Assembly (NCBI GenBank): GCA_016932735.1
Contig: JAFGCI010000004.1
Span: 124,711-188,710, forward strand
DNA length: 64,000 nucleotides
Direction of reading: 5' to 3'
DNA from: Candidatus Aenigmatarchaeota archaeon
GTDB taxonomy: Archaea > Aenigmatarchaeota > Aenigmatarchaeia > QMZP01 > QMZT01
The notes under the pieces are model-generated. The model saw only the letters and a program-made list of their open reading frames with translations. It did no database searches and was not told the origin of the DNA. The translations under genes were made by a program, and so were the position numbers. Each line of letters opens with the position of its first letter. Positions within the stretch are counted from its first letter, which is position 1. Below are positions 364 to 51,300 of the stretch, one piece after another.

Positions 364-1527
364 TCATAATTTTCTGAGAAGAAACATTTCTCTTGTGAGC
401 GTCTTTTTCTCTTCACGGAAAGGCTGTTCCAGACCTTCACGCACCTTTGCTTCTTCGAAGCCATGTCGCGTGAATATCTTCCTGAAATTCATGTGAACGT
501 TCTTTGTCTTTGTCCTGTATGAAGGAACGACAATGCAAACATAACCGTCCCTTTTTATAACTCTGGCGAATTCCTTTATTATACTGTCATAAAGCTGTAT
601 ATTCTTATTCAGCATGTGCTTGGCCGTTTTTGGCGAGGAAATCTTCTTTAGCGCAGGGCCAAAGTAGGGCTCTGTAACAATAGCATCCACTTTTTCTTTA
701 ATTAAACCGGATATTTCCGAGGCATCAGAAACAAAAAGGGAATCTGTGAAATTATATCTTTTTAATCCATACTCTTCAATAACCCAGTTCAGGTTTCTTT
801 TTGTACTTAAAACCATTTTTGAATCGATATCGGAGCCTATTATGCTGGCATCCATCAATACTGCCTCCTGCAATATTATGCCCGTTCCGCAGAAGGGATC
901 CATAATCCTTGTATTTTCTTTGACGCCTGCCAGATTGAGCATTATTTTTGCGAGTCTTATGGGAATACCGATTGTAGAGACAGTTACTGGTTTATTCTCA
1001 TCCCTCTTTTTGAATTCAAGCGGATTATTGAAAGAGCATGTAGATCCAACATATAATAAATCGCCTCTGAAAAAAAGTACAATATCAATTATATCTTTTC
1101 TTGATAAATGAACGGGGCTGACCTCTCCTTTGAAATTAATAAATCGGGATTTTAATCCTTCTTTTTTCAATATATCTTTAATATTCTTCTGAAGAATCTG
1201 AATCTCGTTTTTGTTTTTCATAAGCCATGATTTTGATTTACCGTATACGCTCATACCGAAGACGGCTTTTTCACCACCCCTGCCAACGTCTTTTGAAACA
1301 TCAATCATATAAGGATCGAATTTCTCAAACATTTCAGAGATTTTAATGATTTTTATTGTCCCCCCCAATACATTGGCGTCTGGTATATTATCACTTTTAA
1401 CTAGCGCCGCGTTCTCCGATATCATTGTTAAATCCAGATTCCAGTTCCTGTGCCTGTAATACATTGTTATCTCAGAAACTGAGAGAGGCCTGTTTTTTCC
1501 AAGAAGAAATATGTATTCTTGCATCAT
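364..1527 (-). CDS. THUMP-domain class I SAM-dependent RNA methyltransferase (putative tRNA guanine-N2 methyltransferase, Trm14/TrmN-like)
   Basis: 387 aa. The C-terminal half carries a Rossmann methyltransferase motif (IMDPFCGTGIILQEAVLMDASIIGSDID). The N-terminal half is THUMP-like. This architecture is typical of archaeal tRNA m2G methylases. Confidence 0.6.
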   Translation of the reverse strand: MMQEYIFLLGKNRPLSVSEITMYYRHRNWNLDLTMISENAALVKSDNIPDANVLGGTIKIIKISEMFEKFDPYMIDVSKDVGRGGEKAVFGMSVYGKSKSWLMKNKNEIQILQKNIKDILKKEGLKSRFINFKGEVSPVHLSRKDIIDIVLFFRGDLLYVGSTCSFNNPLEFKKRDENKPVTVSTIGIPIRLAKIMLNLAGVKENTRIMDPFCGTGIILQEAVLMDASIIGSDIDSKMVLSTKRNLNWVIEEYGLKRYNFTDSLFVSDASEISGLIKEKVDAIVTEPYFGPALKKISSPKTAKHMLNKNIQLYDSIIKEFARVIKRDGYVCIVVPSYRTKTKNVHMNFRKIFTRHGFEEAKVREGLEQPFREEKKTLTREMFLLRKL

Positions 1528-1556: not shown

Positions 1557-1985
1557 ATGTCATACAAATATCTGGAAGATATAGCCACGGCAGACATAGC
1601 ATTCGAGGCCGTTGGGAGGACAACCGAAGAGGCCTTTGAGAACGCTGCAAAGGCGACGTTTAATATAATCACAGATATAAAAGACGTAAAGAGAGAAACA
1701 GAAAAGAAACTCGTGTTTGATGCAGAGGATTTAAAGGCATTGTTATTTGAATGGATAGACGGGCTTTTATTCTATTGGGATTCAGAAAATCTCATTTTTT
1801 CGGATTTTGTCGTTAAAATAAAAGAAGCATCAGGACGCTACAATATGGAGGCTACGGCCAAAGGCGAACCGTTCGACCCCAAAAGGCATGAAGTCAAACA
1901 GAATGTAAAATCTCCAACATATCATCTTATGGAAATAGAAAACCAAAAAGACAGATGCAAAATCAGGATGGTAATTGACATTTAA
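1557..1985 (+). CDS. Archease (activator of the RtcB RNA ligase)
   Basis: 142 aa, MSYKYLEDIATADIAFEAVGRTTEEAFENAAKATFNIITD...GEPFDPKRHEVKQNVKSPTYHLMEIE, matching the conserved archease fold motifs. An rtcB gene lies 2 kb away. Confidence 0.75.
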   Translation: MSYKYLEDIATADIAFEAVGRTTEEAFENAAKATFNIITDIKDVKRETEKKLVFDAEDLKALLFEWIDGLLFYWDSENLIFSDFVVKIKEASGRYNMEATAKGEPFDPKRHEVKQNVKSPTYHLMEIENQKDRCKIRMVIDI

Positions 1986-3673
1986 TCCATCATCTTGAGA
2001 CCGCTTGCCGATTCCTTCAGTTTATTTTTCTTTTTAATCTTGTTTTCACCCTTTGTCGGCGGTATATCACTGTTGACCCAGTCCATAAGCACCGGGCTGT
2101 CTTTGTAATATAAATTCACATATTTTGAGACTTCCTGGAAATCTATTACATTATGATTTCTCATCCATGTGAGTATTTTTTTCCTCGTTTCCAGCTCACT
2201 TTCCATATGTTGGTAAGACACACCGCTCGCATGACTGATTTTTCTGAGCATATGAGATTCAATCATGTTCTTTTCATAAGCATCAGATGACGGAACCCAC
2301 TCAAAAGTTTTAACTGTTCTGGCATTGCCGCTGACCTTGTCTATTGATTCAACCTCATGTATTTCTTTCACTCTTCGGGCGGAATCTCCCTTTTCCCTGG
2401 CTCTTGCCATTATGATTATTATATCCAAGGTTTCTATGAGGCCGGGGGATAATTCTATCGGGGGCGTCTCAAGCCTTTTGATTACATCCTCAATTGAACC
2501 GGCATGTATGGTTCCCATCGATGCATGTCCCGATGCCATTCCCTGAAACATTACGTAAGCCTCCTTGCCTCTTACTTCACCCACTATGACATAATCGGGA
2601 TTCTGCCTGAAAGATTCTCTGAGCAGGTCAAAAAGGCTGACTTCACCATAAATCTTTCCGCCGATTTCAGGGATTCCGAAACCGATTCTTGAAACAGACG
2701 GAATCCAGTTTTCATGAGGCAGGTTCAGTTCCCTTGTATCTTCTATTGAAACAATCTTATTTTCGGGTGGTATGAACATTGTTATAGCATTGAGCAATGT
2801 AGTCTTACCAGATGAAACGCCACCACAAATCAAAAGAGATGCCCTGTATTCCATCATTATCCATAAATATGCCATCAGTTCAGGTGAAGCCGTGTTCAGG
2901 TTTATGAGCTCTATGGGGGATAATGGCTCTTCTCTGAACTTTCTTATTGAAAATGTTGGTCCGTGTGTAGTAACATCCTTTGCAAGAGTCGCCTGGACCC
3001 TGGAGCCGTCCGGCAGGCTTCCGTCGAGTAAAGGCATTGCATAAGAAATATAACGGCCGCATCTCTCGGCAAGTTTTATTACAAATTTTCCAAGATTCTC
3101 GTTGTTCTCTAATCTGATATTTGTCTTAATGGAACCGAATCTTCTGTGGGTAACGAACATATTTGTGGTCGTTCCGTCGCAGCCGATGTCTTCAATATAC
3201 GGATCATGCATCAACGGCTCAATCTCATTCAGTCCTGCAAAATCCCTGAAAATATAATACATTATCTTTGTGTAGGAGTCGGGGCCTACTACTATATTCT
3301 CATCGTCTATTATCTCAGAGACTTTCGATTTCAGGTAATTGAAAGTTTCATTCTTTTTCTTGACAACCGATAAGCTTACATCAATAACCTCAAGGAGATC
3401 GTTTTTAATTTTTTCCATAACGTCTTTTTCTTTCTTTGTAAGTTCAGGTTCCTGAGCGTAATAGATTATACATTTTTCCTCTTTATCCCATTTTATTTTT
3501 GCTGTGACAAAAGGTTCTATAAGAGGATATGTAACGTCAACTTTACTCTTTTCCTTGAAAATGGGTAAGATAACAATGTGTTTTGCATCCCTTATATGGA
3601 CGTCAGGGTAATCGACTTTCATTTTCCCTCTAAGTTTATCAATTTTCTCCCTGAGCAGCCCACGAAAACTCAT
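1982..3673 (-). CDS. FlaI/PilB/GspE-family secretion ATPase (archaeal type IV pilus or archaellum assembly ATPase)
   Basis: 563 aa. Walker A GGVSSGKTTLLNA, Walker B/Asp box DYVIVGEVRGKEA, His box GHASMGTIHA. The N-terminal domain is typical of archaeal FlaI-like ATPases. Confidence 0.85.
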   Translation of the reverse strand: MSFRGLLREKIDKLRGKMKVDYPDVHIRDAKHIVILPIFKEKSKVDVTYPLIEPFVTAKIKWDKEEKCIIYYAQEPELTKKEKDVMEKIKNDLLEVIDVSLSVVKKKNETFNYLKSKVSEIIDDENIVVGPDSYTKIMYYIFRDFAGLNEIEPLMHDPYIEDIGCDGTTTNMFVTHRRFGSIKTNIRLENNENLGKFVIKLAERCGRYISYAMPLLDGSLPDGSRVQATLAKDVTTHGPTFSIRKFREEPLSPIELINLNTASPELMAYLWIMMEYRASLLICGGVSSGKTTLLNAITMFIPPENKIVSIEDTRELNLPHENWIPSVSRIGFGIPEIGGKIYGEVSLFDLLRESFRQNPDYVIVGEVRGKEAYVMFQGMASGHASMGTIHAGSIEDVIKRLETPPIELSPGLIETLDIIIIMARAREKGDSARRVKEIHEVESIDKVSGNARTVKTFEWVPSSDAYEKNMIESHMLRKISHASGVSYQHMESELETRKKILTWMRNHNVIDFQEVSKYVNLYYKDSPVLMDWVNSDIPPTKGENKIKKKNKLKESASGLKMMD

Positions 3674-3677
3674 TCAT

Positions 3678-3944
3678 TCACCGAGAAGTTCTTCCGGTCT
3701 TCTTTCTTGTAATTTTTCTGTGTCTTGAGCATGCAGGGCACGCATAAACTTTGCTTGACGCAAATGCCATACCCTTGTTTCCAAGCTCTTTTCTTACAAG
3801 AGGATCATTTATCCTGAAACCTCTGAAAACGGGGATACATTTATATTTTGGTACCTGCCTTCCGCAGAATCCGCACGTTACGGTTGTTTCCTTTCCTCTG
3901 CCCTTCGTGTGTTCATATCCTCTTTTATAAGCTTTTCCTGCCAT
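3678..3944 (-). CDS. rps26e: 30S ribosomal protein S26e
   Basis: 88 aa. The TKGRGKETTVTCGFCGRQVPKYKCIPVF...VYACPACSRHRKITRKK pattern aligns by eye with eukaryotic/archaeal S26e ([28 protein letters not shown]...YCVSCAIHSKVVRNRSRE). Confidence 0.65.
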   Translation of the reverse strand: MAGKAYKRGYEHTKGRGKETTVTCGFCGRQVPKYKCIPVFRGFRINDPLVRKELGNKGMAFASSKVYACPACSRHRKITRKKTGRTSR

Positions 3945-4006: not shown

Positions 4007-5476
4007 TTATCCTTTTATGACGCCAACGGGCTTCATTTTTGCCACAACTTTCCCTATTCCGGTCGAATTTGAAATGTTGATAACTTCATCAACATCTTTG
4101 TAAGCGCCTGGTGCTTCCTCTGCCACTCCACTCCACGACATTGATTTCAGAGATATTCCCATTTCAGCGAGGTCGCTTTTTACTTTTTCTCCTCTGTAGA
4201 TGTTCTTTGCCTTTACTCTTGACATAAGCCTTCCTGCTCCATGTGCAGTGCTTCCGAAAGATTTATCGAGGGCGCCCTGTGTTCCCACAAGAAGATAAGA
4301 AGCCGTTCCCATGGAACCCGGAATGAGGACCGGCTGGCCAACCTTCTGGTAAACTGAAGGAACGTTCTCATGACCCGCGGGCAGGGAACGGGTTGCACCC
4401 TTTCTATGAATAATGACTTCTCTCACTTTTCCGTCTATCTTGTGCTTTTCTAATTTTCCTATGTTATGGCATATGTCATATACAATATTCATTCCCAAAT
4501 CCTCCGGGGATTTCCCCAAAACCATCGACAGGCTCTCCCTGATCCAGTGAGTTATCATTTGCCTGTTGGCGAAAGCGTAATTGGCTGCAGCCGACATTGA
4601 AGCAAAATATTCCTGACCTATTTTTGACTGGAAGGGAGCGTTTATCAGTTCCCTGTCAGGAAGTTTTGAAACACCTTCAGTCCCGAGTTCTTTTTCCATT
4701 CTCCTCAGGAAATCGGTTGCGACCTGATGGCCAAATCCCCTCGAACCGGTGTGTATCATGACCATTATCTGACCTTCTTCTGAAACACCGAAGGCTTCCG
4801 CTGTTTTTTTATCAAAAATCTTTTCGACTTTCTGTATTTCCATAAAATGGTTTCCCGCGCCAAGCGAGCCTAGTTGAGGAGAGCCTCTTTTATATGTCCT
4901 TTCATTAAGTGCGGCTTCGCTTCTTGCTGTTTTCATTTCTCCGTTTTCTTCAAGCCTTTCGAGATCCTCTTCCCAGCCATAACCATTCTCAATTGCCCAT
5001 CTGGCACCGCTTTCCAGAACGTTTGCAAGGTCTTTTTCCATAAGCTTGTCTATCCTTCCCTTGCTTCCGACACCGGCAGGCACATTCTTGTAAATAGAAT
5101 TAAGGATATCATTCATCTTGGATTTCGTTTCATCATATTCCAGATTCGTTCTGATAAGGCGGACACCACAATTAATATCATAGCCTATCCCCCCCGGCGA
5201 TATTATGCCTTCATTCACATCAAATGCTGCAACGCCTCCTATAGGAAAGCCATAGCCAAAATGCATGTCCGGCATCGCCAAAGAATATTTTTGAATTCCG
5301 GGAAGGCACGCAACATTGACGGCTTGTTGTATTGCTCCGTCCTCTATGAAATCCATAAATTTTTTTGATGTGAAAATCCTTGCGGGAACATTCATTCTTT
5401 TGTCGTGTTTAATACTGAGCTCCCATATATCATTCTCAACTTCAACGAGATTCTTCTTCAGATTATTTTCAGCCAT
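4007..5476 (-). CDS. rtcB: RtcB RNA 3'-phosphate/tRNA-splicing ligase
   Basis: 489 aa with hallmark RtcB motifs: GYGFPIGG, DINCGVRL, HTGSRGFGHQVATD, NISNSTGI, HGAGR. Full length, with no intein. Confidence 0.9.
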   Translation of the reverse strand: MAENNLKKNLVEVENDIWELSIKHDKRMNVPARIFTSKKFMDFIEDGAIQQAVNVACLPGIQKYSLAMPDMHFGYGFPIGGVAAFDVNEGIISPGGIGYDINCGVRLIRTNLEYDETKSKMNDILNSIYKNVPAGVGSKGRIDKLMEKDLANVLESGARWAIENGYGWEEDLERLEENGEMKTARSEAALNERTYKRGSPQLGSLGAGNHFMEIQKVEKIFDKKTAEAFGVSEEGQIMVMIHTGSRGFGHQVATDFLRRMEKELGTEGVSKLPDRELINAPFQSKIGQEYFASMSAAANYAFANRQMITHWIRESLSMVLGKSPEDLGMNIVYDICHNIGKLEKHKIDGKVREVIIHRKGATRSLPAGHENVPSVYQKVGQPVLIPGSMGTASYLLVGTQGALDKSFGSTAHGAGRLMSRVKAKNIYRGEKVKSDLAEMGISLKSMSWSGVAEEAPGAYKDVDEVINISNSTGIGKVVAKMKPVGVIKG

Positions 5477-11306: not shown

Positions 11307-14015
11307 TTGTTAAAAATGTCGAAGCCGTTGATTTTATCTGCATTTATTATATTTTTCCTATTAAACCTTAATCCGGTTTCCTCATCAAATTATACCGTTT
11401 CATGTCCTTCTTATTTCAGTGAAGGGAATCCTCAGATAATATCAGTGAACGTGACTGACATAGAGGCCGATTTCGAAGGCGCCCTGACAGTCTTTCTGGA
11501 AGTTAATGGAACTGATTACGGGCTTATATTCGATGAAAATGAATGGAAGGATTTTTTAAAATATCCAATTCTAATGGAAGGGCAAAGCGATTCAGGAATC
11601 TATTCAGATATTATTTTCAAAGCTAACAGCCTCCCTGAAAATTTCACCGGCGGATTTCTGAAGATAGTTATGAAGAACGAAAATGGCTCCGAGACGGAAA
11701 TATACAATAATAATGTCACAATTTTCAAAGAGATTGATGGCAGTTATCTGGAATTTTTCTACGAAACGGGGAACAGAAGTTTCATAGAAATCAGAGACGT
11801 TTCTGGCATCAGACACAGATATAATCCGGAACAACATGAAAAGAAAAACACAAAAAATGATATTTATTATAAATTTCCTTTATTCGGGGGGAGTGATATC
11901 ATCGTTTTTTATTTCTGTCATGGCATAATTCTGAATAGCAGTTTTAATGTTTCTAATAATGAAACCGTTAGAATAGGCAATATTTTTGACATGAAAATTG
12001 AATCAATCATTGACGAAAAAATATTTCCGAAAATTAAATATGATAATATCTTTAAAATAACCAACAATGACCACAGGACCGGAGAAAGGGAAAATATAGA
12101 AGTTCTTGTTTCGTATTCAGTAAGAGACCTGAACAGCGGCGGAATGCAATATTTTAATTTCACAAAAGATGGTATAAATTCATATTCTTCAACGGGAACC
12201 GGTGAACTGACTCTGGATAAAGGGGAATATGAAATCTGCGGCGATATAGAAAGTATAAAATCAAACGACTTAAAGGCTGTTGACCCATTTCTGGAAAATA
12301 ATATCGCCTGCAGAAACATTACAGTAAAATTTGATAAAATTAACGCTTCCTGCAACCCCTCTATATATTTGAATCTGGAGCCAAAATATAGGGAAAAGAA
12401 GAATGATATTTTAATTACAATAGTCAACTTCTCCGAAGGTGAATATTTAATAAAAATTATTTCGAAAAATATTTTTTCAAATAATTCCGAAGAAAAATAT
12501 TTTCTGGCTTCAGAAAATGAAACCATTTTTGAGATAGATTTTCCCGACTATGCTATTTTTGATGTTTCCGCAGAAATTCTAGAATCAAGTTGTTCAAACA
12601 CAAATTTATCTGATAATTCGATTTCAAAACAAACAGCAGTTATAGAAGATGAAGATTTCGGCATAGAGACATATACCGAAAACATGACATATGAAATCGG
12701 AGACATTTTATATTTTCCTGTTTTCATCTACAACGGACTTAGTGTTGTAAATGAACTGGAAATTGAGACATCCATCAAAAGATATATGGGAGATGAATGG
12801 GAGGAAATCGATATATTAAATTTAACAACAATAACTCTGGAACGGTTTGATTACTCGTGGTCTTTCTATGAATTTCCGGTTGGAAATGAAAGCATCTCAG
12901 GTTATTATAAAATTCAGGCGAGGGCAGAAATAAACGGAACCTTCCGTTACTCCTATTCATATTTCAACATAAACGGAATACCTGATATGGGCGAAGAAAA
13001 TCTTTCAATATTAATCAATCCCGATTCTCTCAGGTTTGGCGATATAGAGTCCGTTCTGATTGATTTCTATTCCGGCAACCGGCACGACATTGAACCTGTT
13101 TTTGTTGTCTACATAAACAAATTCATAGACGAGGACAAAACCAAATACGCCGCTGTCGATTTCGATCTCTCTTCTCTGCAATCCAAAATATACGAATCGA
13201 TGGCATCCGTTAAAATGAAAATAGAGAGAGGAAAACATTATTTTATAGCTCTCCCGCTTTTCGTAAATCCTAATTGTGATGATAATTATAGACAGGGCTA
13301 TTACAGGGGAGTTGTGAGAGCATATCTATCCGAAAACAGGAACAAATACGAATCAATCGATTTTGTAATAGAGCTAAAGGAAGGCAGCGGGAAACTGTGC
13401 CCGAAATCTTCATCAAAATCCTCGGCTCCTGCTTCTGTTATTCTTGAAGTCCCCGAACAGGTTAAAAAAGATATAAAATATCCTGGAATCGTTCATCCGG
13501 GAGAAGAATTCGAGGTAGAGGTTGATTTAAAAAATACGAATTCCTTTAAGCAGACCGTGGAGATTTATTCATATGTTTATGAAGGCAGCAAACTCCTTTC
13601 CTACGGATTATCTGAAGACGGCTGGGGAAAGGCATGGACATCAAATAAGATCACAGCTGAAATCCCTCAGGGGAGCGGGAAAACGGTTAAGCTGAAAAAC
13701 ATGATAAAGGAAGAAACCGCTCCGGGAAAATACAATCTGCGTGTAAGAAAGCTAATAAATGGTAAGAAAGAGGATATTGACGGAGAAATAACCGTAGTCG
13801 AAAAAGAGGAGGAAGAGTTAGAGAATCAGGATTTTGGTAACGAAACCGACAAAAAACCGGACATAAAGGCTTTGGATGAAATTAATAATCAATCCCATTT
13901 AAATTTAAAAGAAGAACCAGAATATAATGGAATACCTACAGGAGCAATTGTAGGAAGGCAATTCGATGTCAAGATAATAAATATAATAATTGTGCTCCTT
14001 AGGTTGTTTATCTGA
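11307..14015 (+). CDS. Large secreted or surface-anchored hypothetical protein (N-terminal signal peptide, C-terminal transmembrane anchor, many N-glycosylation sequons)
   Basis: 902 aa. N-terminus MLKMSKPLILSAFIIFFLLNLNPVSSS is signal-peptide-like. The C-terminus IVGRQFDVKIINIIIVLLRLFI is hydrophobic. N-x-S/T sequons are frequent. No recognisable catalytic motif. Confidence 0.5.
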   Translation: MLKMSKPLILSAFIIFFLLNLNPVSSSNYTVSCPSYFSEGNPQIISVNVTDIEADFEGALTVFLEVNGTDYGLIFDENEWKDFLKYPILMEGQSDSGIYSDIIFKANSLPENFTGGFLKIVMKNENGSETEIYNNNVTIFKEIDGSYLEFFYETGNRSFIEIRDVSGIRHRYNPEQHEKKNTKNDIYYKFPLFGGSDIIVFYFCHGIILNSSFNVSNNETVRIGNIFDMKIESIIDEKIFPKIKYDNIFKITNNDHRTGERENIEVLVSYSVRDLNSGGMQYFNFTKDGINSYSSTGTGELTLDKGEYEICGDIESIKSNDLKAVDPFLENNIACRNITVKFDKINASCNPSIYLNLEPKYREKKNDILITIVNFSEGEYLIKIISKNIFSNNSEEKYFLASENETIFEIDFPDYAIFDVSAEILESSCSNTNLSDNSISKQTAVIEDEDFGIETYTENMTYEIGDILYFPVFIYNGLSVVNELEIETSIKRYMGDEWEEIDILNLTTITLERFDYSWSFYEFPVGNESISGYYKIQARAEINGTFRYSYSYFNINGIPDMGEENLSILINPDSLRFGDIESVLIDFYSGNRHDIEPVFVVYINKFIDEDKTKYAAVDFDLSSLQSKIYESMASVKMKIERGKHYFIALPLFVNPNCDDNYRQGYYRGVVRAYLSENRNKYESIDFVIELKEGSGKLCPKSSSKSSAPASVILEVPEQVKKDIKYPGIVHPGEEFEVEVDLKNTNSFKQTVEIYSYVYEGSKLLSYGLSEDGWGKAWTSNKITAEIPQGSGKTVKLKNMIKEETAPGKYNLRVRKLINGKKEDIDGEITVVEKEEEELENQDFGNETDKKPDIKALDEINNQSHLNLKEEPEYNGIPTGAIVGRQFDVKIINIIIVLLRLFI

Positions 14016-14016
14016 T

Positions 14017-14191
14017 GGGCCCGTAGCTCAGTTTGGAAGTCACACTATGCAGGAAACCGCGATGACCGACATTAGAGCACTTGCCTCCTAAGCAAGGGGT
14101 CGAGGGTTCAAAAATTGGAACCAGTTGCCTCCGGCAACATGAAACACGAATTGAAGTGTGTTGGTTCGGGTTGAAGTTCCCTCCGGGTCCG
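14017..14191 (+). tRNA. tRNA-Arg (anticodon CCU) interrupted by two apparent non-canonical introns, one in the D-loop and one in the T-loop
   Basis: Acceptor 5' strand GGGCCCG (14017-14023) pairs with CGGGTCC (14184-14190), followed by discriminator G14191. D-stem GCTC (14026-14029) / GAGC (14075-14078), with ~36 nt inserted in the D-loop. Anticodon stem CTTGC (14080-14084) / GCAAG (14092-14096) is perfect, with loop CUCCUAA. T-stem GAGGG (14102-14106) / CCCTC (14179-14183) has ~65 nt inserted after the TTCAAA of the T-loop. That insert contains a perfect hairpin GTTGCC-TCC-GGCAAC. Confidence 0.55.
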
Positions 14192-14236
14192 CTATATTTT
14201 CAGGCTCAATAAAGGTTTATATCATTTTAAATACAA

Positions 14237-15004
14237 ATGATACATATGGGAAGGGTAATAGCTGTTGCTTCTGGAAAGGGCGGAGTCGGAAAGACTACTT
14301 TGGTTTCCAATCTTTCAGCATCACTGGCCCGCTATGGCCAGTCTGTAATAGCAGTCGATGCAAATATAACCACTTCAAATCTGGGCATACATCTTGGAGT
14401 CTCACTTTTTCCTGTAACTCTTCATGATATTCTAGACGGAGTAGCTGATGTTAATGATGCGCTATTCCATCATGAACATGGATTTAGAATAGTCCCGGGA
14501 GACATTTCAATAAGGAAACTGAAAAGCTTCAACAAGCGAACAGTAGGCAATACACTCTACAAGCTTTCAGATAAAGCCGATTTCGTTCTCATAGATACAG
14601 CTGCAGGCCTCGGCAAAGAGGCGACGGAGTTTATCAGGGCGGCCGACGAGCTTATAACCGTTACAAATCCAAACCTTCCGGCTGTAACCGATGCATTGAA
14701 GCTGAATGCAATAGCGAAGAGCCATGACACTGTTCCTATTGGGGTCATAATTAACAGGATAATGAACCATCCATCGGAGATGCCTGCGCATGAGATAAGC
14801 GATTTCCTCAGCCTGCCTATCCTTGGGAAGATACCTGAAGATAAGACGGTTCATAAGTCTGTAGCGGCAAAAACGCCAGTAATAGCATACGCACCCAAAT
14901 CACCTGCCGCACAGCACATGAGGTCAATTGCAGCATATCTTATCGGAGAAGAGTTCATACCGCGAAGATCTCTGGGCCATACATTTTTTGGCTGGATGAA
15001 GTAA
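14237..15004 (+). CDS. MinD/ParA-family P-loop ATPase
   Basis: 255 aa with a deviant Walker A motif VIAVASGKGGVGKTT and Walker B VLIDTAAGL. Typical of the MinD/Mrp/ParA family. Confidence 0.8.
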   Translation: MIHMGRVIAVASGKGGVGKTTLVSNLSASLARYGQSVIAVDANITTSNLGIHLGVSLFPVTLHDILDGVADVNDALFHHEHGFRIVPGDISIRKLKSFNKRTVGNTLYKLSDKADFVLIDTAAGLGKEATEFIRAADELITVTNPNLPAVTDALKLNAIAKSHDTVPIGVIINRIMNHPSEMPAHEISDFLSLPILGKIPEDKTVHKSVAAKTPVIAYAPKSPAAQHMRSIAAYLIGEEFIPRRSLGHTFFGWMK

Positions 15005-36693: not shown

Positions 36694-39600
36694 GTGAGCA
36701 GCACTTATAAGTCACAAGGTACAGCTTCAAGTCTATTTATAGTCTTCTCGGTAATATTGTTCTCGCTCACAACACTATTCGTATTAACAGTCTTTGCTTC
36801 TTCTGAGTTCATTGTTTATACGAATAAGGGTACTTATAATCCTGAAGAGCCTATAGTCATAGTCGTAGAAGGTCCCCCCTTCACCGAATTCTATCTGACA
36901 GTTCTCAATAAGAACATGAAGCAGGTATTTCCAATCGGAGACCCTTTATGGAAACTGAACAGCCATGGAATGCACAATTTTTATCTGGAGGGATTTTCAG
37001 AAAGCGGAATGTACACTGCTAAAGTACTTTCCGGAGAAAAGAATACCCAGTCAACTTTTTATGTGGCCTCTTCCCAGACCGAATTAACAGAAGAACCGGC
37101 TGAACAGGAAACACCTGCTTCTGAAAGCAACATCCAGATACAATCAAAAACTGAAGAAAAAAAGGTTATTGTCGCATCTAGGGAAGAGGTAAAAGAGATT
37201 GAAATCTCTGAAAAGCCAAAATATGGACTTGGATGGGAGGAAGTCTGTAAGGAAGGAAAATGCACAAAGACCATAAGCTCATATTTAAGCTCGATGCAGG
37301 ACAGTGAAGGAGAGTACAGGCCGTTCAACGAACTTGTAAAGCTTAATAAGAAGAGTTCAGGCTCTTACCAGTATCTTGAGATAGACTGGAATTCAAATAA
37401 AGTCGGAATGGACCCTTATGCTGTAATAAACCGCCAGAAGGTGGATGACCTTCCCCCATCAATGAGCTTTAACACGATAACAAAAGAAATCGCGGGCCAG
37501 TATAAATGGTCCTACGAATTCAGGAATATACATAACCTTGAAGCAATTGGAATAAAAATAAATTCGAACGGAGGTATTCTAGAAGTCGTGGATGATGACA
37601 CTATAATCATTGACGGAATTGAGTTAGACTTCTCCGACCTTTACAATTCATGCGACGAATATGGCATCTGCACAGACTCGGGAATTATGGTATCGATAGA
37701 CCAGATAGATTTGAACACAGCCGACGTAAGAATAACCAATTTTGAAGGAACTATAGTGCTCCTGGATCCGACAATAAAGTTGCAGACGGCTGACACCCAG
37801 AATCTCGATGACTCCCATGTCAGAAGCAACTCGGCTACCTCGACTTATGGAACAGACACCGCCTTAAGGCTGAGGTCGAGGTCCAACTTCAAATACAGGT
37901 CATATGTGAAATTCAATATCTCTTCAATACCCTCCGCAGCCACGATACAGGATTCTAAGCTTTGCCTTTATTTGTACAGCGACGACTCGACGCCTTCTGC
38001 AGGGGCGTACCACGTTTACGATTACACATGGACAGAGGAAGCGCTCACATGGAACAACCAGCCATGCGGAACCAACTTTGATAGCACCACAAACTGCAAC
38101 ATTACAGCCGAGAACACCCAGACTACAAGCGGAACCGGCTGGATTTGCTGGAATATCACAAAGATGGTTGCAACCGAGAAATATCAGGGAGATGAGAACG
38201 TTTCTGTGGCTATTAAAACAACAGAAACCGACGGCAATGTAGGAGAGGATGCTTTTTATTCGAAGGAGTACACAACTGATACGAGCCTTCGACCTTACCT
38301 TAACATAACCTATGAAATGCCTCCTGCAATTACTTCAGTCGCAAACTCGTCAACAACTGATATATCAACACTGATAACATGGACAACCGATAAGAACGCC
38401 AACTCGTCGGTAGTTTACGGGAACACTACATCACTGCTCGACGGCTCAAATTCATCTGCAACATTTACAACTGCTCATTCAATTCAGCTTACAAACCTGA
38501 ATCCTCAGACGCTTTATTATTACAACGTGACCAGCTGTGGTTTGGGAACCAAGTGCAATACAACAGGCCCTTACAATTTCACAACTTCGGAGTCTCCTGA
38601 TGCAACCAATCCGATAGCTTCGCTGGGAACGAATCCGGTCGCCAATTACAACGATACTGACGGTTCGGTCACATTCGACCTGAAATGCTCCGACAATAGG
38701 GGTGTTGGTACACTCCAGCTCTGGAGCGACTGGACAGGCTCATGGTCAGCCAATCAGACCAACTCATCCCCGGTAAACAACTCGGTCTGGTCGGTCCTTG
38801 TCGAAGGAATCCCCGAAGGCATATGGTCATGGGGAGCCCACTGCAACGACACTTCAGGAAACGAAGGTTGGACAGACTTAAATAGGACAATAACCATTGA
38901 TACGAAGCCGCCACAGATAACATCAGTTACCAATTCATCAACAACATTTGACCATACCGATATAGTATGGACGACCAACGAGCCTGCAAACTCTTCAATA
39001 ATATACGGAAAGATCGAATTTATGGAAGATGGTTATGAGTCATCCACTTCTCTGATTTATTCACATTCACTATACATTGAGAACCTTGACTCCGAAACGC
39101 TGTATTATTACAATGTGACTTCATGCGATTTTATAGGAAACTGCAATACTACGGGACCATATACATTCAAAACGGCTAGAATGCCTGAAGCGGGGATACC
39201 TTTGGTCTATCTTGGAGGCGAACCCCAAAATTACTTCAATTCATCCTCAGGAAATGTAGAATTTGAAATCAAATGCATTGATGACGGCGAGATAGATTCG
39301 CTCCAGCTGTGGAGCGACTGGAGCGGTTCATGGTCTGGAAATGAAACCAACTCAACATCAATAAATGACACATGGTGGAGCTTTTCTGTCAGCGGAATTC
39401 CTGAAGGTACATGGATTTGGGGGGCATCGTGCAGCGACAAAGAAGAGAATACGGGATGGTCGGCACTTAACAGGACGCTTACAATTGATCTGGCACATCC
39501 CGAGATTTCTTTGCAAGACCCTGAGCCATTTTATAACACAACTTCACAGGACGTGAATTTTATTTTCAGGGCGACAGATAATATGGCAACTGTCCTGTCA

Positions 39601-42600
39601 TGCTCTCTTTACATAAACGGATCTTTTTCCGCGGTTAACTCGTCTGTAATAAACGGCTCATTGACAACATTTGAGAAAACGGGTCTTTCCGAAGGACTCT
39701 CTCAGGACTGGGCAATAAACTGCACGGATTATGCAGGAAATTCATACCAGGCTCCGGAAAGGCACTTTTCAATTGATGCAACGCCCCCCATCACTTCTTT
39801 TGAGAATATGCCTATCGATAATTACAATTATTCTTCCCGTTCTCTCTTATTCGAGCTTTACTGCATAGACAATACAGCTCCTCACACCCTTCAGCTATGG
39901 AGCGACTGGTCAGGCTCATGGTCAGCCAATCAGACCAACTCATCCCCGGTAAACAACTCGGTCTGGTCGGTCCTTGTTGAAGGAATCCCTGAAGGCATAT
40001 GGTCATGGGGAGCCTACTGCAAAGACACTCTCGGTAATAGCGATTGGACTGATGTCAACAGAACCCTTACAATTGATATTACAAAGCCTCAAATTACAGA
40101 TGTAACAAATGAATCGATCACTCATACATCGACAATAATATCATGGAATACTGACGAGCCTGCAAATTCCAGTATTTCATACGGAAGAACGGAAGACCTT
40201 AATGAAGGAATTTCATATTCATCAAATTTTGTGTTTTTTCATCAGGCAAGCCTTTCAAGTCTTTTATGCGATACGCTCTATTACTATAATATAACGTCCT
40301 GCGACTTTGCAGGAAACTGCGACACGACAGGGCCGTACAGCTTTAGGACAAAGCAATATCAGCCTCTTCTAGTGAATACGGTTACGGCATGCGCAGCACA
40401 TGATTCCAAGGCGAGAGGAACATTTGACATAGCATGCGACGCTCCCGACGGCTCTTACCTTGAATCAAATGACGGGAACTACGAAGACCACACGTATACA
40501 AAATCGCTTTATGCCGGAGTGAGGATAGAATCAGTAGATGCAGAAGAGACCAAGTGCTATGGAATTGAGTCTGTTTATATATGTTACGAATGGTGGGGCA
40601 CCAATACTCCTCAGGACTGCGATATATCTGTTGATGCTGATGGTGGCGCAAGCTATACAGTCGCGTCATCAACATGCCCGGGAACGATAGCAGATCCTGG
40701 ACCCCAATGCCTTGATGTGACATCACTTGAAACATGGACATGCCAGAATTTTTTTGGCCCGACCGGAACAAGGGCAGTTGCCAAGTCTGAATTCAGAAGG
40801 ACGAGTGCGGGCGGAGGCAGCACTGAAATTGCATATTGGGACATATTATATTTTAACGTGAGCTATCTTGCAGATATAAAGCCTCCCGAAGTTGTTCTCA
40901 ATAATCCTGCTGACAATTTTAATTCAAGCTCCGGAGATATATACTTTAATTGCACAGGTTTTGATGAAGTTAATCTTACCAGCATAAACCTTTATGGAAG
41001 CTGGGGTCCGGGATGGCATCTCAATGCAACAAATGACAGCGTAATTAACAACACATTAACAACATTCAATGTGAAAGGAATAAAAGAAGGGACATATGAA
41101 TGGAACTGCTATGCATGTGGTAACTTTACAAATTGCCAATTTTACTCGGTTAATTATACAATCACAGTCGATACGACAGCTCCAACAGTCTCACTCTCCT
41201 CACCAATTCCGGACTTCAACACGACCTCAGAATCAATAGACTTCATATTCACGGCCACCGACAACCTCGCATCAGCCCTTTCCTGCGACCTTATAATCAA
41301 CGGCTCAGTTGCCGGAACGAACTCATCAACACTAAACGGCACCCTGACAACATTCATCCAATCATCTTTATCAGAAGGCTTAGACCAGACATGGGCAGTC
41401 AACTGTTCCGACTCCGCGCAAAACAGCAATCAGCCATCAGCAAGGACATTCAGCATCGACCGCACAGGACCATCCATCGCCTTCCCATACTACGCCAACG
41501 CGACAAAGAAAACATCATCCCAGACACTGACCATAAACCTCTCCGTGACAGACACAGGACTAGGACCTGACATATGCCTTGTCCATATTGAAGGGCAGTC
41601 AGCAAACCAGACCATCCCATATGTCAGCGGATGGTGCAACGGGACGATCTCACTGACCAATGCGAATGAAGGCAACTCAACAATCTATGCATACGCAAAC
41701 GACACATTGAACAACTTCGGCCTCAACAGTTCCTATGTAATATACATAGACGACTCTCCGCCAATAATCTCATCAGTAACAAACGCATCCACGACCAACG
41801 AAACAACATTAATCACATGGTCGACCAACGAGCCAGCCAACTCTTCTGTAATCTACGGGACCGACAACACGACCCTGTCAGACGGCTCTAACTCATCCGA
41901 AACCTTAACAAGCTCACACTCATTAGCCCTTAAAGACCTGACACAGGACACCATGTATTACTACAATGTGACATCCTGCGACTCACTAAACAACTGCATA
42001 ACAGAAGGTCCATACAGTTTCAAAACGGCTTTATCAGAGGACGATTTTGATTCTCCGGTAATAAGCCTTATTCTTCCGTTAAACAATTCCGGGGACAATG
42101 ACGGAAACGTCTCTTTTTCATACAACGTCACAGACGACTCTAGCATCTTGAATTGTTCGTTGATTTTGAACGGGCAGATAAACCAGACGAATTCGACTGT
42201 CCAGAAAACAATTACCCAGTATTTCAATGTTACCAGCCTTCCGGCCGGTCATTACAACTGGAGCATAAGATGCACTGACGATTCGCCTAATGAAAACACA
42301 CAGACCACAGCATCAAGAAATATTGACATGATAATTTATTCGGCCCCGGTGGAAAACTTTACAATGACAGACTTGTCACAGGTTGATACTTCAAACATCA
42401 CGGATTTCTATATAGAGATAGAAAATAAGACGAGACTTATATTCAACGAGACTCTGGATTTATCAGGCGGATTAGATTTGTCATCAATAATAACAATCCA
42501 GAGCAATTTCATAGATGTCGATACAGCCTCTGAGCCAAGGCTCAATAAATCTGCAGAAATAACTTTCCATAATCTTTCCTATATCTTTAATCCGGTCATA

Positions 42601-45600
42601 CTAAGGAACGGGAAAGAATGCCCGTCTTCTATATGCATGGACAATTATTACAATTTGGGAGAAGGTGTTCTCAGGTTTAATGTAACCCAGTTTACAAACT
42701 ATTCAAGTTCCGAAAACAGCCGGCTTGAAATCTGGGACAGCGGTGATGAAGAGGGCGGGCTTAATATACACAATCCCGGTGATATTGTGGCATTCTATGC
42801 CAATTATACCAATTTGACAAGTTCCGAATCAATAAACGGAACTGGAATAAACTGTACAATAAATTTCGAGGATGGCAGCATCAACATGACCTTTAATGAA
42901 AGCTCTGCTATATACTGGTATAACAGGACTTTCACGACAGCCGGGCTGAAAGAATGGAACGTTTCCTGCAACGGTTCAGTTCAGGACTATGAGCCCCTTA
43001 TCGTCACGGAAACAATTACCATATACGAGCCATGGTGGAACGACAGCTGGAAGTACAGGATTCCAGTGACTATAGAGAATTATTCATATGTGCTTGAAGA
43101 CTTCCAGGTTCTGATAACAATTGACAGTTCAAGCGCTCCTGAAAACTGGAACTGGTCCCAGCAGAACGGAGTCCGCTTCGTTTGGGTGAACGATTCAGGC
43201 GACATTGAAATTCCTCATTATACACCTTACTGGAGTGCCGTTTCTGAGGAAGCGCAGATATGGATAAAGATGCCTGAGATTTCGAATGTTACCAATGAAA
43301 CTGTTCACCTGTATTATGAAAATCCGTCAGCTTCAGATACAAGCAACGCCACAAAAGTCTATGATGTCTATAATGACTTTGAATCCGGAATGGATTATTT
43401 TACACAAAGGAACACAGACGGCGGAGCATGTTCATTAAGCGGGGGAAGGCTTGTCTGCGATCCGAACACACAATGGTCAGGCGCTTATGCCTACACAGAT
43501 TACAACTTCACAACAAAGTATGGATACTACATAGAATTCCGGATGTGGAAAAACCAGTCGACATCAGGATCACCTCCCTTCGGATTCAGTACAGTTTATA
43601 TGAGGAAACCTTATCCGGATCTGGGCTATGAGACTACCTATTATTATACAGCCCAGTCGTCGTCGCTGATAATAGAGGATCGTGTCGATACAGGAAGCTA
43701 CAATGAACAGCAGACTTATGCCAAATGGAACAACGGCACATTCACAGGCAAAGATGACAAATCATGGGCTCAGTACGATAACCAGCCTTATGATTATATT
43801 GTGGTATGGGATACGGACAGCAACATTCTTTCCCAGAACGTAACCCATAACGGTACTTTGCATTCTTCCCAAAGTTATATTCCTGAAAGCGTAATAACCG
43901 ACATTGGAAGCTGGTGGAAGCTGGAAGTCGGAACCTTTGGCTACTATGACACTAATGCAGAATATGATTCCATATCTATGAGAAAATACATAGCAGATGA
44001 AATTGCTCTGTATTACGGCGAAGAGGAGACATCCGGACTCGTTCTAAGCGTAACCAGCCCGTCAAACACATCCTATTCGAATGCGACAATGACTTACAGC
44101 GGATATACAAACAACAACGCTACAATAAGAATGAGCATCAACGGAAACGATAATTATACTTTCTGCTCAAGCTGCACGTCTTTTGGCCTGTCGACATCTG
44201 AAAATGTTACGGAAGGCTCCAATAACGTGACCTTCTGGGCAATCAGCACTGCAAATACATCAGTGGTTGTCAATGAAACAGTATGGTTTTACTTAGATAC
44301 GATTGTGCCTGAAGTTGAATGGAATCCGGAAGCGACCGAGTCAGGGACGCAGTCAAACGTTGAAATTTTGATTAACTGCTCTTTTGATGAAACAAACCCC
44401 CATACAAAAGGATACCAGTTCAATGGAACAAATTCGACCTCATGGGACGGCAACGACGGAATGAATTACTGGGTTGTAAAGAACAGTCTGGAATTCGGAA
44501 ACTACAACGATATATATTGCTGGATAAATGACACCCTCGGACATTATAACGAGACTTCAAAAAGAGAAATAAGCATTCTATGGCTGGATTGGTGGGACGC
44601 GGACTGGACACTAAGAACACCCATAAGTCTTGAAGAAAAAGCGGATAAATATGACTTAATTAATATGACCTTTATGCTGTCGATTAATACATCAAAACTT
44701 TATAATGAAGGCAAAATAAGAGACGACTGCGGGGATATAAGGTTTGTCTATAATGAATCGCATAAGGAGATTCCATATAACTTCACGGAATGTGAAATCA
44801 CGGGCGGAAATACGACATTCTGGATAATGTTTGATCTCGATCGTGCTGATACAATGCTACTGTACATGTACTACAACAATTCAGAGGCGTCAGCAACAAG
44901 ACAGACTCTGAAGCCATACGATACTGAGGATTGTACATTCTTTGACAGTCTTGACGGCTCGACAGCAGGTTCTATAACAGGCTCTGAATTCACGGACTAT
45001 GAATGGGTTACTGATGGCAGGGGAGCAGGCATGCTTTATGAACTTACATCGTCATTTGAGAATTCATGGGCTTACAATCCGGGTTCCGAGGGAACTATTG
45101 AATTCTGGCTAAAGCTTGACGAGGAAATAAATACATCAAGCACGGTGTCTGCCAAGACAATAATTTCATCGGGAAGGAACGGCATATCATTTGATCAGGC
45201 AAGCGGCGCAAATAATGTTCCGGGCCACATTATATTTGGCATCTCACCATCTGCGGGATTCTATTCGGAGATTTACACAAATCAGGACAAATGGTATGAA
45301 GATAACTTCTATCATATAGCCGTTACGTGGGACGGTTCCACTCAGAGCATATATGTAAACGGAACCCTTGACAAGAGCCAGACGCAGACGAGAGCAGGTG
45401 GATGGGGTTCATCTGTTCTGACAAACAGGAATTCCAACTGGGGGAGCAATGCTTATAAGATAAGTAACGTAAGATTATGCCCGGCAGCAAAAACATCCTT
45501 CCAGTATGTCGTTTATCCGGAGCCGAATTCAACTATTCAGCCGGAGGAAACAGTGCCTTTCCTTGATATCGGTTCACCAGTCAATACAACCTATTATTCG

Positions 45601-47870: not shown

Positions 47871-48395
47871 ATGGAAGTAGAAAGGTTTGAATGGAAAGAA
47901 GAGGCAAAAAGGCGAATTCCGGATTTAAAAAGGTACATATTGATACTGACAGTTGTACTTATAACAGTCGCAATTATTACGGCGCTAATATTATTTCCCC
48001 CCGATTTATCTATTTTCAGTTTTAATCAGCCGTCAATTGAAGATATTAGTTCAGAATTGACAATATCTCCCGCGAGAAACGTTGCGGAAGAAAAGTATAT
48101 AATGACGATAGGGGAGGAGTCTACCATAAATTTTTCATTCCTTCCTGACAAGACAGGTGAGGTTAAATCCTCTATAGAACTCCCTCCAGGAGTGCAGTTG
48201 ATATCCGGTGAAATGCAGCTGAATGACAGTATTCAGTCTAATCAGACAAACTCTCTTAATGCTTACATAAGGGCTGTCCGTGTCGGCAAATGGACTATAA
48301 AAGGTTTAGTCATAACGGACAACGGGACATTCGAGAAATCCTTTGATTTATGCATAGATGTCCTGGAAGAAAATGCAAGGGATAGGTGTAAATGA
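47871..48395 (+). CDS. Small membrane-anchored hypothetical protein, translationally coupled to the second giant gene
   Basis: 174 aa with one TM helix (ILILTVVLITVAIITALILF), then a beta-rich domain. Its TGA stop overlaps the ATG of the next gene (ATGA at 48392-48395). Confidence 0.45.
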   Translation: MEVERFEWKEEAKRRIPDLKRYILILTVVLITVAIITALILFPPDLSIFSFNQPSIEDISSELTISPARNVAEEKYIMTIGEESTINFSFLPDKTGEVKSSIELPPGVQLISGEMQLNDSIQSNQTNSLNAYIRAVRVGKWTIKGLVITDNGTFEKSFDLCIDVLEENARDRCK

Positions 48396-51300
48396 AAAAA
48401 TCCCAAGTAAAATTTGGGTCTGGGCAGTTATCAATCCTTTTCGTATTCATAGCTGTGCTTATTTTTACGGTCTCATTTACAGGCATAGGGCAATCTGCAT
48501 CTCCTATAGTAGTAACATGTAACAAGGATAACTATGACACTAATGAGGTAATGGCATTTCAGGTTCAGGGAGATGCCGGCAAAGAATTCGGATTCTACAT
48601 ATACGGACCGGACGGGGAAAAAGTCTTTCCTTTAGGAGATCCTGTCTGGACTCTGAACAGTTACGGAATGCACAATTTCTATCTTGAAGGATTTGGAGAA
48701 AATGGTTTATACAAGGCCGTTGCTGTATTCGGTGAAGAAAGTTTTGAGAAAGTCTTTACTGTCGTAAGCGCTGCTGAATCAGAAAGCAATATTGAAGATA
48801 AGCAGGAATTATTGCCGGTTGAAAAGAATGTCGAAGAGGAAACAATGAACGGGGAAAAAACCGAGACCGAAATACAGGCATCAAAAAGGCCGCCCGGAAA
48901 ATATATGCATTACAAAAAGATATTGTCGTACCAGCCTGATGCAATAAAAGAAATACCTGAAGGAGCGATAAACGTCAATGTCTATACAGTCGGTAAGCCA
49001 GGAAAAGGAACTCTTGCGGATAAAACAGGACCATCTGAAACCGTCATAGAATATTACGCGCCTTCAGGGCCAGTAAGAGGTTCGGATTCGTTCGGGAATC
49101 CTATACAGGAAAGCGCAGAAAATGAAAGATACAAGCTGGCAAGTTATGGTACCGTTATAAATCTCGTTGAAGCGAAGGAGACACCTGGAAAAGTAAGACT
49201 CACTTATGAAATCATGAATGAAGGCGGAAAGGATTTCAGTTACATAGCATTAACCTCTTCCCAGAAGCCTATAGTAAACGCTTTCCGATTTGCTGAAAGG
49301 TCCAGAACAGTGTACCATTCCAACGAAACTATTTATGAAGGTGACGTCAGGGAAAGCCACCCCTACGCGACACGAAAGGATTACATACCCTACGATGAAA
49401 ACCTTCAGGAATCAAACTATACTGTAATATGCTATGCATACGAGGATTCCGTCCCTTACACCGAAAGGGAATATATAGAAATAAAATCGATTGCAATATT
49501 AACAGACTTCATTAACGAATGGAATGCGGAATCCAACATCATATTCGATCCGATAAAGGAGGAGCTGGAAGCGGCCGGAGCCAATTATGACATAAATATG
49601 CTTGAACCTGATATACTGCCCACATTTGATGAGACCGTCTACATATACCGCCTTGAACATAATCCTTCAGAGAGCACATACATAGAATATGAAACTCCTA
49701 ATGAGAAGACGAAGTTTCTTCTTCTTGATCCTGCCGGAGGCTCCTGGTGGAATTCCTCCTGGCTTTATACAATGAACCTGACCGTGGATTCATCCCTGGT
49801 TGATGCGGAATTGACAGACTTTCCGGTAATGGTCAACCTCACTTCCGGAAGGTTTAATTTCTCCAGAGCGCAGAGCAATGGAGAAGACATAAGATTCGTG
49901 GATAACTATTATAACGACTTGCCACATGAAATCGAGTACTGGAATGCGACATCACAGCAGGCGATAATCTGGACCCGACTTTCAAATGTATCAAATACCA
50001 CCGACACAACGTTCTGGATGTATTACGGTAATGATGCTGTATCCGACGGTCAGAACATGACAGGTGTATGGGATTCCGAATTCCTTCTTGTCCAGCATCT
50101 GGATGAAACCAGCGGGACATACCATTACGATTCGTCTCAATATGGAAACGACGGAACGGTAAGCAGCGTCACAATGGACTCCGCCGGAAAGATAGACGGC
50201 GGAGACCAGATTCTTGGCGGAAGCGGCAGATATGTACGCCACGACTTCAACACTTCAAATGTTGTGACAGTGTCTGCATGGGCGCAGCTTCCGGATAACA
50301 CCGACGACGACATGATATGGGTGATAGACAGGGTCGGCGTAAACGACCTTGACCTTTGGTTTACTGATGGATACACATCACCGAGGCTTTTCCTGAATAC
50401 ATGGGACAGCGACGGCAACCCTATATGCAGCCAGCCATCAGGTGTCGGCAACTGGCATCTCTATACAATGGTTATTGATAACGGAAACACAAACCTATAC
50501 ATCGACGGACAGCTTGCAGGCTCTCCTGGCTACAGAGACCCTACAGGAGTCGGATTTTACATATCATGGACAACGACTTACGGATGGAATGGCTACGTCG
50601 ATGAAGTCCGTGTATCCAATACTTCAAGAAGCCTTGCTTGGATTAATGCATCTTTCTACGCTCAGAATGATTCTCTGATTATATACGGCAAAGAAGAGGC
50701 AAGTTCTGATGTCTGGTGGAACATTTCATGGGATTTCAGAATTCTTGTAATTGTCAACAGCACCAATTTCACAAGAGACGACGACCCCATTGAAAAGTTT
50801 ATCAATTTCACGCAGGAATTGGAAAGTCTGGGCGCGGCGGGAAAGACCTTTGACAATAACTCAATACGAGTTTTTGAATATGATACAGCGACAAACCGTT
50901 ATCTTCATGAAGTCCCGTCCCAGTTTGACAATTCTTCCAGTTATAATGCAACGACTAACGCCTACGGCGAAGTCATATGGATAATGAACGGGACGACGCA
51001 GAACAATACTATAAGGAAATATTACATTTATTTTGATACGACAGATAGCCCTAAGTCAGAGCCTTCATATTACACCGACTTGTCATACACGTTTAATTCC
51101 GGAAATGCTGTAATACAGAATGAGCATTTCGAGGCGACTCTTGACGATTCTGGGGTCATTTCAGACATTGAAAATTACAATGGAAGCGGAACAGATGTCA
51201 TTGAAAACGACTGGTACTGGAACGCTTTCAGGACAGTTGACGATTGGGCAATACAGTCTTTCACGGCAGATTGGGTAAGAAGATATTGCGGGCCCGTAAG

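Follow-up and report, generated by a model that had tools for sequence, protein, structure and literature searches.

Does the plus-strand interval 14017-14191 hold a working tRNA gene, even though standard tRNA finders reject it? A preliminary description of the window (the whole 64,000-nt stretch of DNA that was analysed) had proposed here a tRNA-Arg(CCU) carrying two non-canonical introns, one in the D-loop and one in the T-loop. We consider it highly likely that the interval is a functional, doubly interrupted tRNA-Arg(CCU) gene whose transcript is spliced by the archaeal protein pathway; the splicing is what we infer from the sequences of this gene and of its orthologs.

The whole interrupted gene is 175 nt long, runs from G1 to the discriminator base G73 and comprises three exons. 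In RNA letters its elements follow one another as GGGCCCG, UA, GCUC, AGUUUGGAA, an insert of 33 nt, UUA, GAGC, A, CUUGC, CUCCUAA, GCAAG, GGGUC, GAGGG, UUCAAA, an insert of 65 nt, U, CCCUC, CGGGUCC and G. The parts are:

14017..14038, plus strand: exon 1, with the 5' strand of the acceptor stem, U8 and A9, the 5' strand of the D stem and the D-loop segment AGUUUGGAA, which includes G18, G19 and A20.
14039..14071, plus strand: predicted intron 1 (D-loop), 33 nt, in the variable region at about 20a/20b; borders accurate to +/- 1-2 nt.
14072..14112, plus strand: exon 2, with the end of the D-loop, the 3' strand of the D stem, the anticodon arm, the variable loop GGGUC, the 5' strand of the T stem and T-loop positions 54-59 (UUCAAA).
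14113..14177, plus strand: predicted intron 2 (T-loop), 65 nt, at position 59/60.
14178..14191, plus strand: exon 3, with U60, the 3' strand of the T stem (CCCUC), the 3' strand of the acceptor stem (CGGGUCC) and discriminator G73.

Once the two inserts are removed, all four stems pair as originally described. GGGCCCG (14017-23) pairs with CGGGTCC (14184-90) in the acceptor stem, GCTC (14026-29) with GAGC (14075-78) in the D stem, and GAGGG (14102-06) with CCCTC (14179-83) in the T stem. The anticodon arm CTTGC / CTCCTAA / GCAAG occupies 14080-96, with the anticodon CCT at 14087-89. The bases expected in all tRNAs can be read directly from the spliced product (U8, A14, G18, G19, A21, U54-U55-C56, A58 and the pair G53:C61), and A20, C35 and G73 are consistent with arginine tRNA identity. 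All three exons are collinear within the 175 nt, and the gene is neither split nor permuted. The TGA stop codon (14013-15) of an upstream 902-aa ORF ends one base before G1, and the sequence after G73 is CTA, so CCA is not encoded; both points had been noted before and stand.

The upstream 902-aa ORF has no Pfam match, yet is conserved in relatives. An A/T-rich box, AAATATAATAATT (13979-13991), lies inside its end and precedes G1 of the tRNA by about 26-38 nt, and a T-run, TATATTTT (14192-14200), directly follows the tRNA gene. The two may be the gene's own promoter and terminator. Much further downstream, two giant plus-strand ORFs fill about 27 kb of the 64-kb window: one of 3643 aa (36694-47625) and one of at least 5203 aa (48392-64000) that runs off the window end.

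In the intact sequence, ARAGORN reports no tRNA anywhere in the 64-kb window, and neither does Rfam at its gathering score. Relaxing the Rfam threshold to E <= 10 over 13900-14300 yields chance microRNA and lncRNA matches only, and no tRNA. Excision of 14039-14071 and 14113-14177 gives a 77-nt product that ARAGORN calls as tRNA-Arg(cct). The intron mode of ARAGORN considers anticodon-loop introns only. Applied to the unspliced region it returned a 'tRNA-Ser(gct)' with a 101-nt intron, and after excision of the T-loop insert alone ARAGORN returned a 'tRNA-Val(cac)'; we dropped both as forced low-threshold artefacts. Under minimum-free-energy folding, a 178-nt stretch retains its acceptor, D and T stems, with a stability modestly above that of shuffled sequences (z = -1.81).

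Relatives were fetched via the MinD-like gene directly downstream (14237/14246-15004), and metagenomes were searched with a DNA pattern for the anticodon and T arm. The tRNA-Arg(CCU) gene adjoins the MinD-like gene in 16 other lineages (17 with the window), and does so in every locus recovered. The nearest named metagenome-assembled genomes (MAGs) by MinD are labelled Micrarchaeota and Aenigmatarchaeota, and the lineage is DPANN-like. Among the MAGs with orthologs are GCA_964521635.1, which is near-identical, GCA_964637945.1, CAZKOV01, JAADIF01 and GCA_973317345.1. The insert states of the loci are as follows, with MinD identities given relative to the window:

Both inserts (7): the window, L004/L005 (MinD 98%), L006/L007/L011 (93%), L001 (87%), L012, L002 (74%) and L010.
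T-loop insert only (2): L008 (MinD 79%) and L009 (76%).
D-loop insert only (2): L013 (MinD 59%) and L022.
An insert at 9/10 plus the T-loop insert (1): L019/L020, with no D-loop intron.
No insert (4): L003, L015, L017 and L021.
Truncated contig: L023, which starts inside a T-loop insert.

The MinD-like gene itself has a TTTATAT box at 14216-22, 24-30 nt upstream of an ATG at 14246. The start of homologous MinD proteins corresponds to 14246 (252 aa) and not to the listed 14237, and every locus has a conserved AAAG(G/T)TTTATA upstream of MinD. The box resembles an archaeal promoter that serves a leaderless mRNA.

Across the orthologs the exons are almost invariant and the insert positions are fixed, while the insert sequences diverge. 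Exon 1 is identical or differs by one base (C16 in L004/L005) across the window, L004, L006, L001 and L002. We spliced the interrupted orthologs in silico by a single rule, in which a 5' exon ending in UUGGAA is joined to N-UAGAGC, and one ending in UUCRAA to UCCC; every interrupted ortholog so treated is called tRNA-Arg(cct) by ARAGORN. The insert-free orthologs are called by the same program as ordinary tRNAs. Their scores against Rfam RF00005 are 66-71 bits; genes with the T-loop insert only score 33 bits, and those with a D-loop insert go undetected. Aligned, 14 spliced or insert-free orthologs yield a consensus cloverleaf of 21 pairs. Compensatory double changes occur in 8 of these; among them are the acceptor pair 6:67, which bridges both inserts, and three pairs of the T stem that bridge the T-loop insert. 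The split arrangement is found in NCBI, JGI, ENA and Logan assemblies. Recurrence in independent assemblies, together with insert-free orthologs at the same position, argues that it is far more than chance, and the two-intron gene first proposed from the window is borne out by this series.

The rejection of the gene by standard tRNA finders, and the lack of an endonuclease gene in the window, would also be expected of a decaying pseudogene, a tRNA-Arg gene broken by two insertions and no longer functional. We regard this as very unlikely, given that the exons are conserved in at least seven independent lineages while inserts and flanks diverge, that compensatory changes occur in the stems spanning the inserts, that splicing motifs lie at the exact junctions (see below) and that the codon concerned is a major one. 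AGG accounts for 197 of the 497 Arg codons (40%) in the window genes and is one of two main Arg codons. The acceptor stem (14017-14019 with 14188-14190) combines G1-C72 and G2-C71 with a G3:U70 wobble; the anticodon of this tRNA is one for Arg and its discriminator base is G73 (14191), and G3:U70 is kept in 10 of 14 orthologs. We dropped the idea that AGG is recoded to alanine owing to this pair: AGG codons of the MinD gene fall at Arg positions that are invariant in distant homologs.

At the junctions, we located cuts by a rule taken from the geometry of the canonical 37/38 intron, in which the outer helix, a 4-nt strand of the central helix and two bulge bases precede the cut (marked ^ below). 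The T-loop intron (14113-14177) has a strict 3-4-3 hBHBh' motif, a bulge-helix-bulge arrangement described previously (PMC5829648), and the strict scan matches at p=14112 and q=14178, in exact agreement with the borders originally given for this insert. The T stem serves as outer helix, and the central helix is formed by TTCA (14107-10, tRNA positions 54-57) and TGAA (14172-75); the bulges are AA^A (14111-13) and GT^T (14176-78); and the inner helix pairs 14114-24 with 14161-71 at 10 of 11 positions. The core of the intron forms two hairpins, at 14124-38 (GTTGCC-TCC-GGCAAC, the perfect 6-bp hairpin already pointed out in this insert) and at 14144-59.

Comparison across lineages supports this junction. 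In nine distinct lineages, 89.7% of cells are paired, versus 36-60% after the partner has been shifted 1-3 nt. The junction has 8 compensatory pairs, and the observed values were reached by 0 of 500 shuffles. The inner helices differ wholly in sequence between lineages (AUUGG/CGGGU, GCCGC/GCGGC, GGGAA/UCCC and GCAA/UUGC). When T-loop introns are shuffled, a motif appears at the exact site with P = 0.0015 for the window and 5e-5 to 0.016 per sequence. In L004, whose MinD is 98% identical, the T-loop insert (L004 225-260) is 36 nt long versus 65 nt in the window: the inner 37 nt, with both hairpins, are replaced by 5 nt and the junction-forming ends are unchanged. The core of the T-loop intron is thus dispensable. 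For ARMAN-2, an intron at position 59/60 has been published, with in vitro cleavage by the organism's own endonuclease (PMC3239211).

The D-loop junction is less regular. Its central helix pairs TTGG (14033-36, including G18 and G19) with CCGA (14066-69), followed by the 5' bulge AA^G (14037-39) and an inner helix of TCA (14040-42) with TGA (14063-65). The 3' cut, CA^T (14070-72), lies inside a 3x5 internal loop beside the D stem, and the motif has no contiguous outer helix (a run of 0-1 bp). As modelled, this fits a relaxed HBh'-like motif with a cut register uncertain by 1-2 nt. Over nine insert-bearing lineages, 35 of the 36 central-helix cells (97%) are paired, with CCGA, UCAG, UCGG, UCGA or UCUG as the partner, and the junction overall has 76.7% of cells paired versus 10-46% in slid registers. 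The 5' bulge is 3 nt throughout, AA^R (AU^A in L022). L022 has an inner helix of 8 perfect bp; in the window, L004 and L002 this helix measures 3-4 bp. The 3' side carries the invariant UAGAGC, which comes after a conserved CA (in L004, UA) and a variable base. Shuffling the D-loop intron of the window gives P = 0.0018 for a motif at the exact site, and across shuffles of each intron, D-loop and T-loop, the per-sequence values range from 5e-5 to 0.04. Other central-helix registers tried by hand (TGGA, GGAA and TTTG) were set aside, as only TTGG/YCRR pairs in nearly all lineages.

The borders of this intron need adjustment. An insert of about 36 nt had been placed at 14039-14074; an insert is indeed present there, and its 3' border was probably set 2-3 nt too far, because the TA before GAGC is invariant in all orthologs, with or without the insert, and so belongs to the exon. 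The cut rule leads to a predicted mature D-loop of 12 nt, AGUUUGGAAUUA (AGUUUGGAA-U-UA), which is 2 nt longer than the AGUUUGGAUA of L008 and L009, two genes with no D-loop insert. Borders at 14038-14072 would instead give the shorter D-loop seen in insert-free orthologs. Since the 3' site lies in an internal loop and the predicted loop is 2 nt longer than the insert-free one, we treat the borders as uncertain by 1-2 nt.

These irregularities bear on a narrower reading, in which the T-loop insert alone is a genuine endonuclease intron and the D-loop insert is removed at other borders (14038-14072, for example), inefficiently or in some other way. Besides the missing outer helix and the 3' site in the 3x5 internal loop, the register is blurred in orthologs with shorter D-loops, where the central helix can be extended to 5 bp, and in L022 an ATA repeat at both junctions would permit splicing to the exact insert-free sequence. 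In vitro, Methanopyrus EndA is a poor cutter of the organism's own D-loop HBh' intron (PMC5829648). We nonetheless judge this reading improbable. The central helix is kept in all but one of the cells compared, slid registers are far worse, and conservation extends to the 5' bulge and to the pairs that open the inner helix. L013 and L022, which have the D-loop insert only, have perfectly conserved exons, so that the insert must be removed somehow, and archaea are not known to have another route for removing introns from tRNA.

Nothing specific favours the idea that the inserts stay in the mature RNA as expansions of the D-loop and T-loop, or that they are artefacts of assembly or mobile elements, and we give it almost no credence. 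Retained inserts would leave G18, G19 and T-loop positions 54-57 buried in intron pairings, and such burial is incompatible with the D-loop/T-loop elbow of tRNA. An artefact would not be expected to recur in assemblies from all four sources. When every intron was compared by BLAST with the window and with each ortholog locus, no extra copy of either intron emerged; this argues against a mobile element, and these sequences give no hint of a mobile intron family. The D-loop inserts of the window and L004 are not even linked by BLAST, although their MinD proteins are 98% identical.

A further check on the cut rule comes from L019 (about 1150-1330, minus strand relative to MinD), and from L020, where a 55-nt insert lies between tRNA positions 9 and 10. 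Here acceptor bases 4-7 (CCCG) pair with CGGG of the intron in a good relaxed motif; read from the sequence, the junctions consist of CCCG/CGGG, UA^A and AC^G, with an inner helix AGAGC/GCUCU. The second intron of L019 is 37 nt long and located at 59/60. The rule is supported: applied here, it puts the 5' intron precisely at 9/10 and recovers the sequence of the orthologs.

The motifs alone prove nothing, because strict bulge-helix-bulge-like motifs are common by chance: the scan of the window returned 2682 on the plus strand, and about 2700-3800 chance motifs per strand. After excision of each strict candidate in turn and a rerun of ARAGORN, this single-intron search found no other tRNA in the 64 kb. 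The short central helices are mostly missed by minimum-free-energy and pair-probability folding (probabilities in the window sequence of 0.75-0.81 for the D-loop helix and 0.03-0.42 for the T-loop helix), an energy model that is not favourable to them and not decisive either way. The inserts, at 33 and 65 nt and with no Rfam match at E <= 10, do not fit self-splicing group I or group II introns, whose catalytic RNA cores run to hundreds of nucleotides. Some tRNA introns contain a C/D-box guide RNA, the euryarchaeal tRNA-Trp intron being an example. A search for the C box (RUGAUGA) and the D box (CUGA) found CUGA in neither intron, and only a partial GAUGA in intron 1.

Two candidate processing enzymes are encoded in the window:

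4007..5476, minus strand: RtcB RNA ligase (PF01139, E = 3.9e-170), the expected joiner of exons, not specific to the tRNA-Arg gene.
1557..1985, plus strand: archease (PF01951, E = 2.8e-42), the RtcB cofactor.

A ligase for 2',3'-cyclic phosphate and 5'-OH ends is thus present, and the preliminary description had already cited the RtcB plus archease pair. To our knowledge RtcB and archease are near-universal in archaea, so their proximity adds little specific support. Pfam scans of 39 window ORFs found no splicing endonuclease or tRNA_int_endo domain. The need for an endonuclease of relaxed specificity, claimed for both introns, probably holds only for the D-loop intron, whose 3' site falls within an internal loop; the T-loop intron, at its non-canonical position, offers a strict motif. 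In DPANN, broad endonuclease specificity has been tied to inserted loops, including in alpha4 enzymes (PMC5829648), and asking whether the enzyme is heteromeric or homotetrameric is therefore too coarse a check in this group.

We predict the following route to the mature tRNA. Transcription from a promoter inside the 3' end of the upstream ORF would yield a precursor of about 175 nt plus short flanks. EndA would cut two sites in each of the two bulge-helix-bulge-type motifs (four cuts), leaving 2',3'-cyclic phosphate and 5'-OH ends. At the T-loop intron it would be offered the strict 3-4-3 motif, with the T stem as outer helix and bases 54-57 paired with TGAA of the intron. At the D-loop intron the motif would be relaxed, with U17-G19 paired with CCGA of the intron and the 5' site marked by the 3-nt bulge and the inner helix. 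RtcB with archease would then join the three exons into the 77-nt tRNA, CCA would be added after ligation, since none is encoded, and the mature tRNA would decode AGG.

Multi-intron tRNA genes with D-loop or T-loop introns are already known from Thermoproteales, ARMAN-2, Methanopyrus and Aeropyrum (PMC3239211, PMC4033280, PMC5829648), and the precedents first invoked for this gene, Thermoproteales and ARMAN-type DPANN archaea, are thus apt for a lineage that appears DPANN-like. The closest counterpart is ARMAN-2 (Candidatus Micrarchaeum acidiphilum), in which the epsilon2 endonuclease cuts a 59/60 intron in pre-tRNA-Cys(GCA) and acts on pre-tRNA-Pro(GGG), whose introns lie at 53/54 and 59/60 (PMC3239211, PMC3488258, PMC12397907). 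Shared features are the DPANN affiliation, the 59/60 T-loop intron, more than one non-canonical intron per tRNA gene and bulge-helix-bulge junctions of strict or relaxed form. The window gene differs in its isoacceptor, Arg-CCU, and in having its second intron in the D-loop and not in the T-loop. Moreover, the ARMAN-2 tRNA-Cys has a relaxed hBH motif at 59/60, where the window gene has a strict one, and the MinD of the window lineage is closest to the MAGs named above, not to ARMAN-2 itself.

D-loop introns have been described in Methanopyrus kandleri pre-tRNA-Glu(UUC), at 20b/21 with an HBh' motif, and in Aeropyrum pernix pre-tRNA-Thr(UGU) (PMC5829648, PMC3241643). Like the window intron they occupy the variable part of the D-loop, and their relaxed HBh' type, with a good 5' bulge and a poorly defined 3' site, is the one that the window junction resembles. 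The window intron differs in its position at about 20a/20b and in the tRNA affected, and while the partner intron in M. kandleri is a canonical one at 37/38, the window gene has no anticodon-loop intron. For Thermoproteales, PMC4033280 (citing Sugahara 2007/2008 and Fujishima 2010) describes multi-intron tRNA genes with up to three non-canonical introns. In that account, too, several non-canonical introns may occur per gene and their presence varies among related genomes; it also describes intron sequence families shared across different tRNAs, read as transposition, whereas the introns studied here are single-copy in the window and ortholog loci. What is modestly new is the orthologous series itself, with 0-2 introns distributed over three sites (9/10, about 20a/20b and 59/60).

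The age of the D-loop intron can be gauged from L001 (2807-2844), L012 (51-88) and L013 (1321-1358), whose D-loop introns align without gaps. Common to the L001/L012 and L013 introns are a palindromic TTTCGAAAGAA and a hairpin of 9 bp in which three pairs have changed in a compensatory manner; MinD identity between the two clades is only about 59%. This suggests that the D-loop intron is ancient, vertically inherited and under structural constraint. That it is kept by selection, and is not neutral baggage, seems to us rather unlikely. If it were so, the excised intron or the unspliced precursor could itself be functional: a stable or circular RNA, a checkpoint while the tRNA matures and protection of the gene against integrating elements are conceivable roles. 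A locus with three alternative intron sites would then be a natural series for intron gain, retention and loss.

For annotation, the consequence is that ARAGORN and Rfam/Infernal miss this gene and likewise all D-loop-interrupted orthologs, so that genomes of this DPANN group would appear to lack a tRNA for AGG. Hidden disrupted tRNAs in DPANN were already suspected (PMC5829648). The introns had also been put forward as a useful lineage marker, a role for which they seem too unstable, the close relatives L008 and L009 being without the D-loop intron. For enzymology, the D-loop junction predicts an endonuclease of broad specificity in this lineage. For evolution, a single syntenic gene with 0, 1 or 2 introns provides a snapshot of intron gain and loss of the kind that reviews have called for (PMC4033280).
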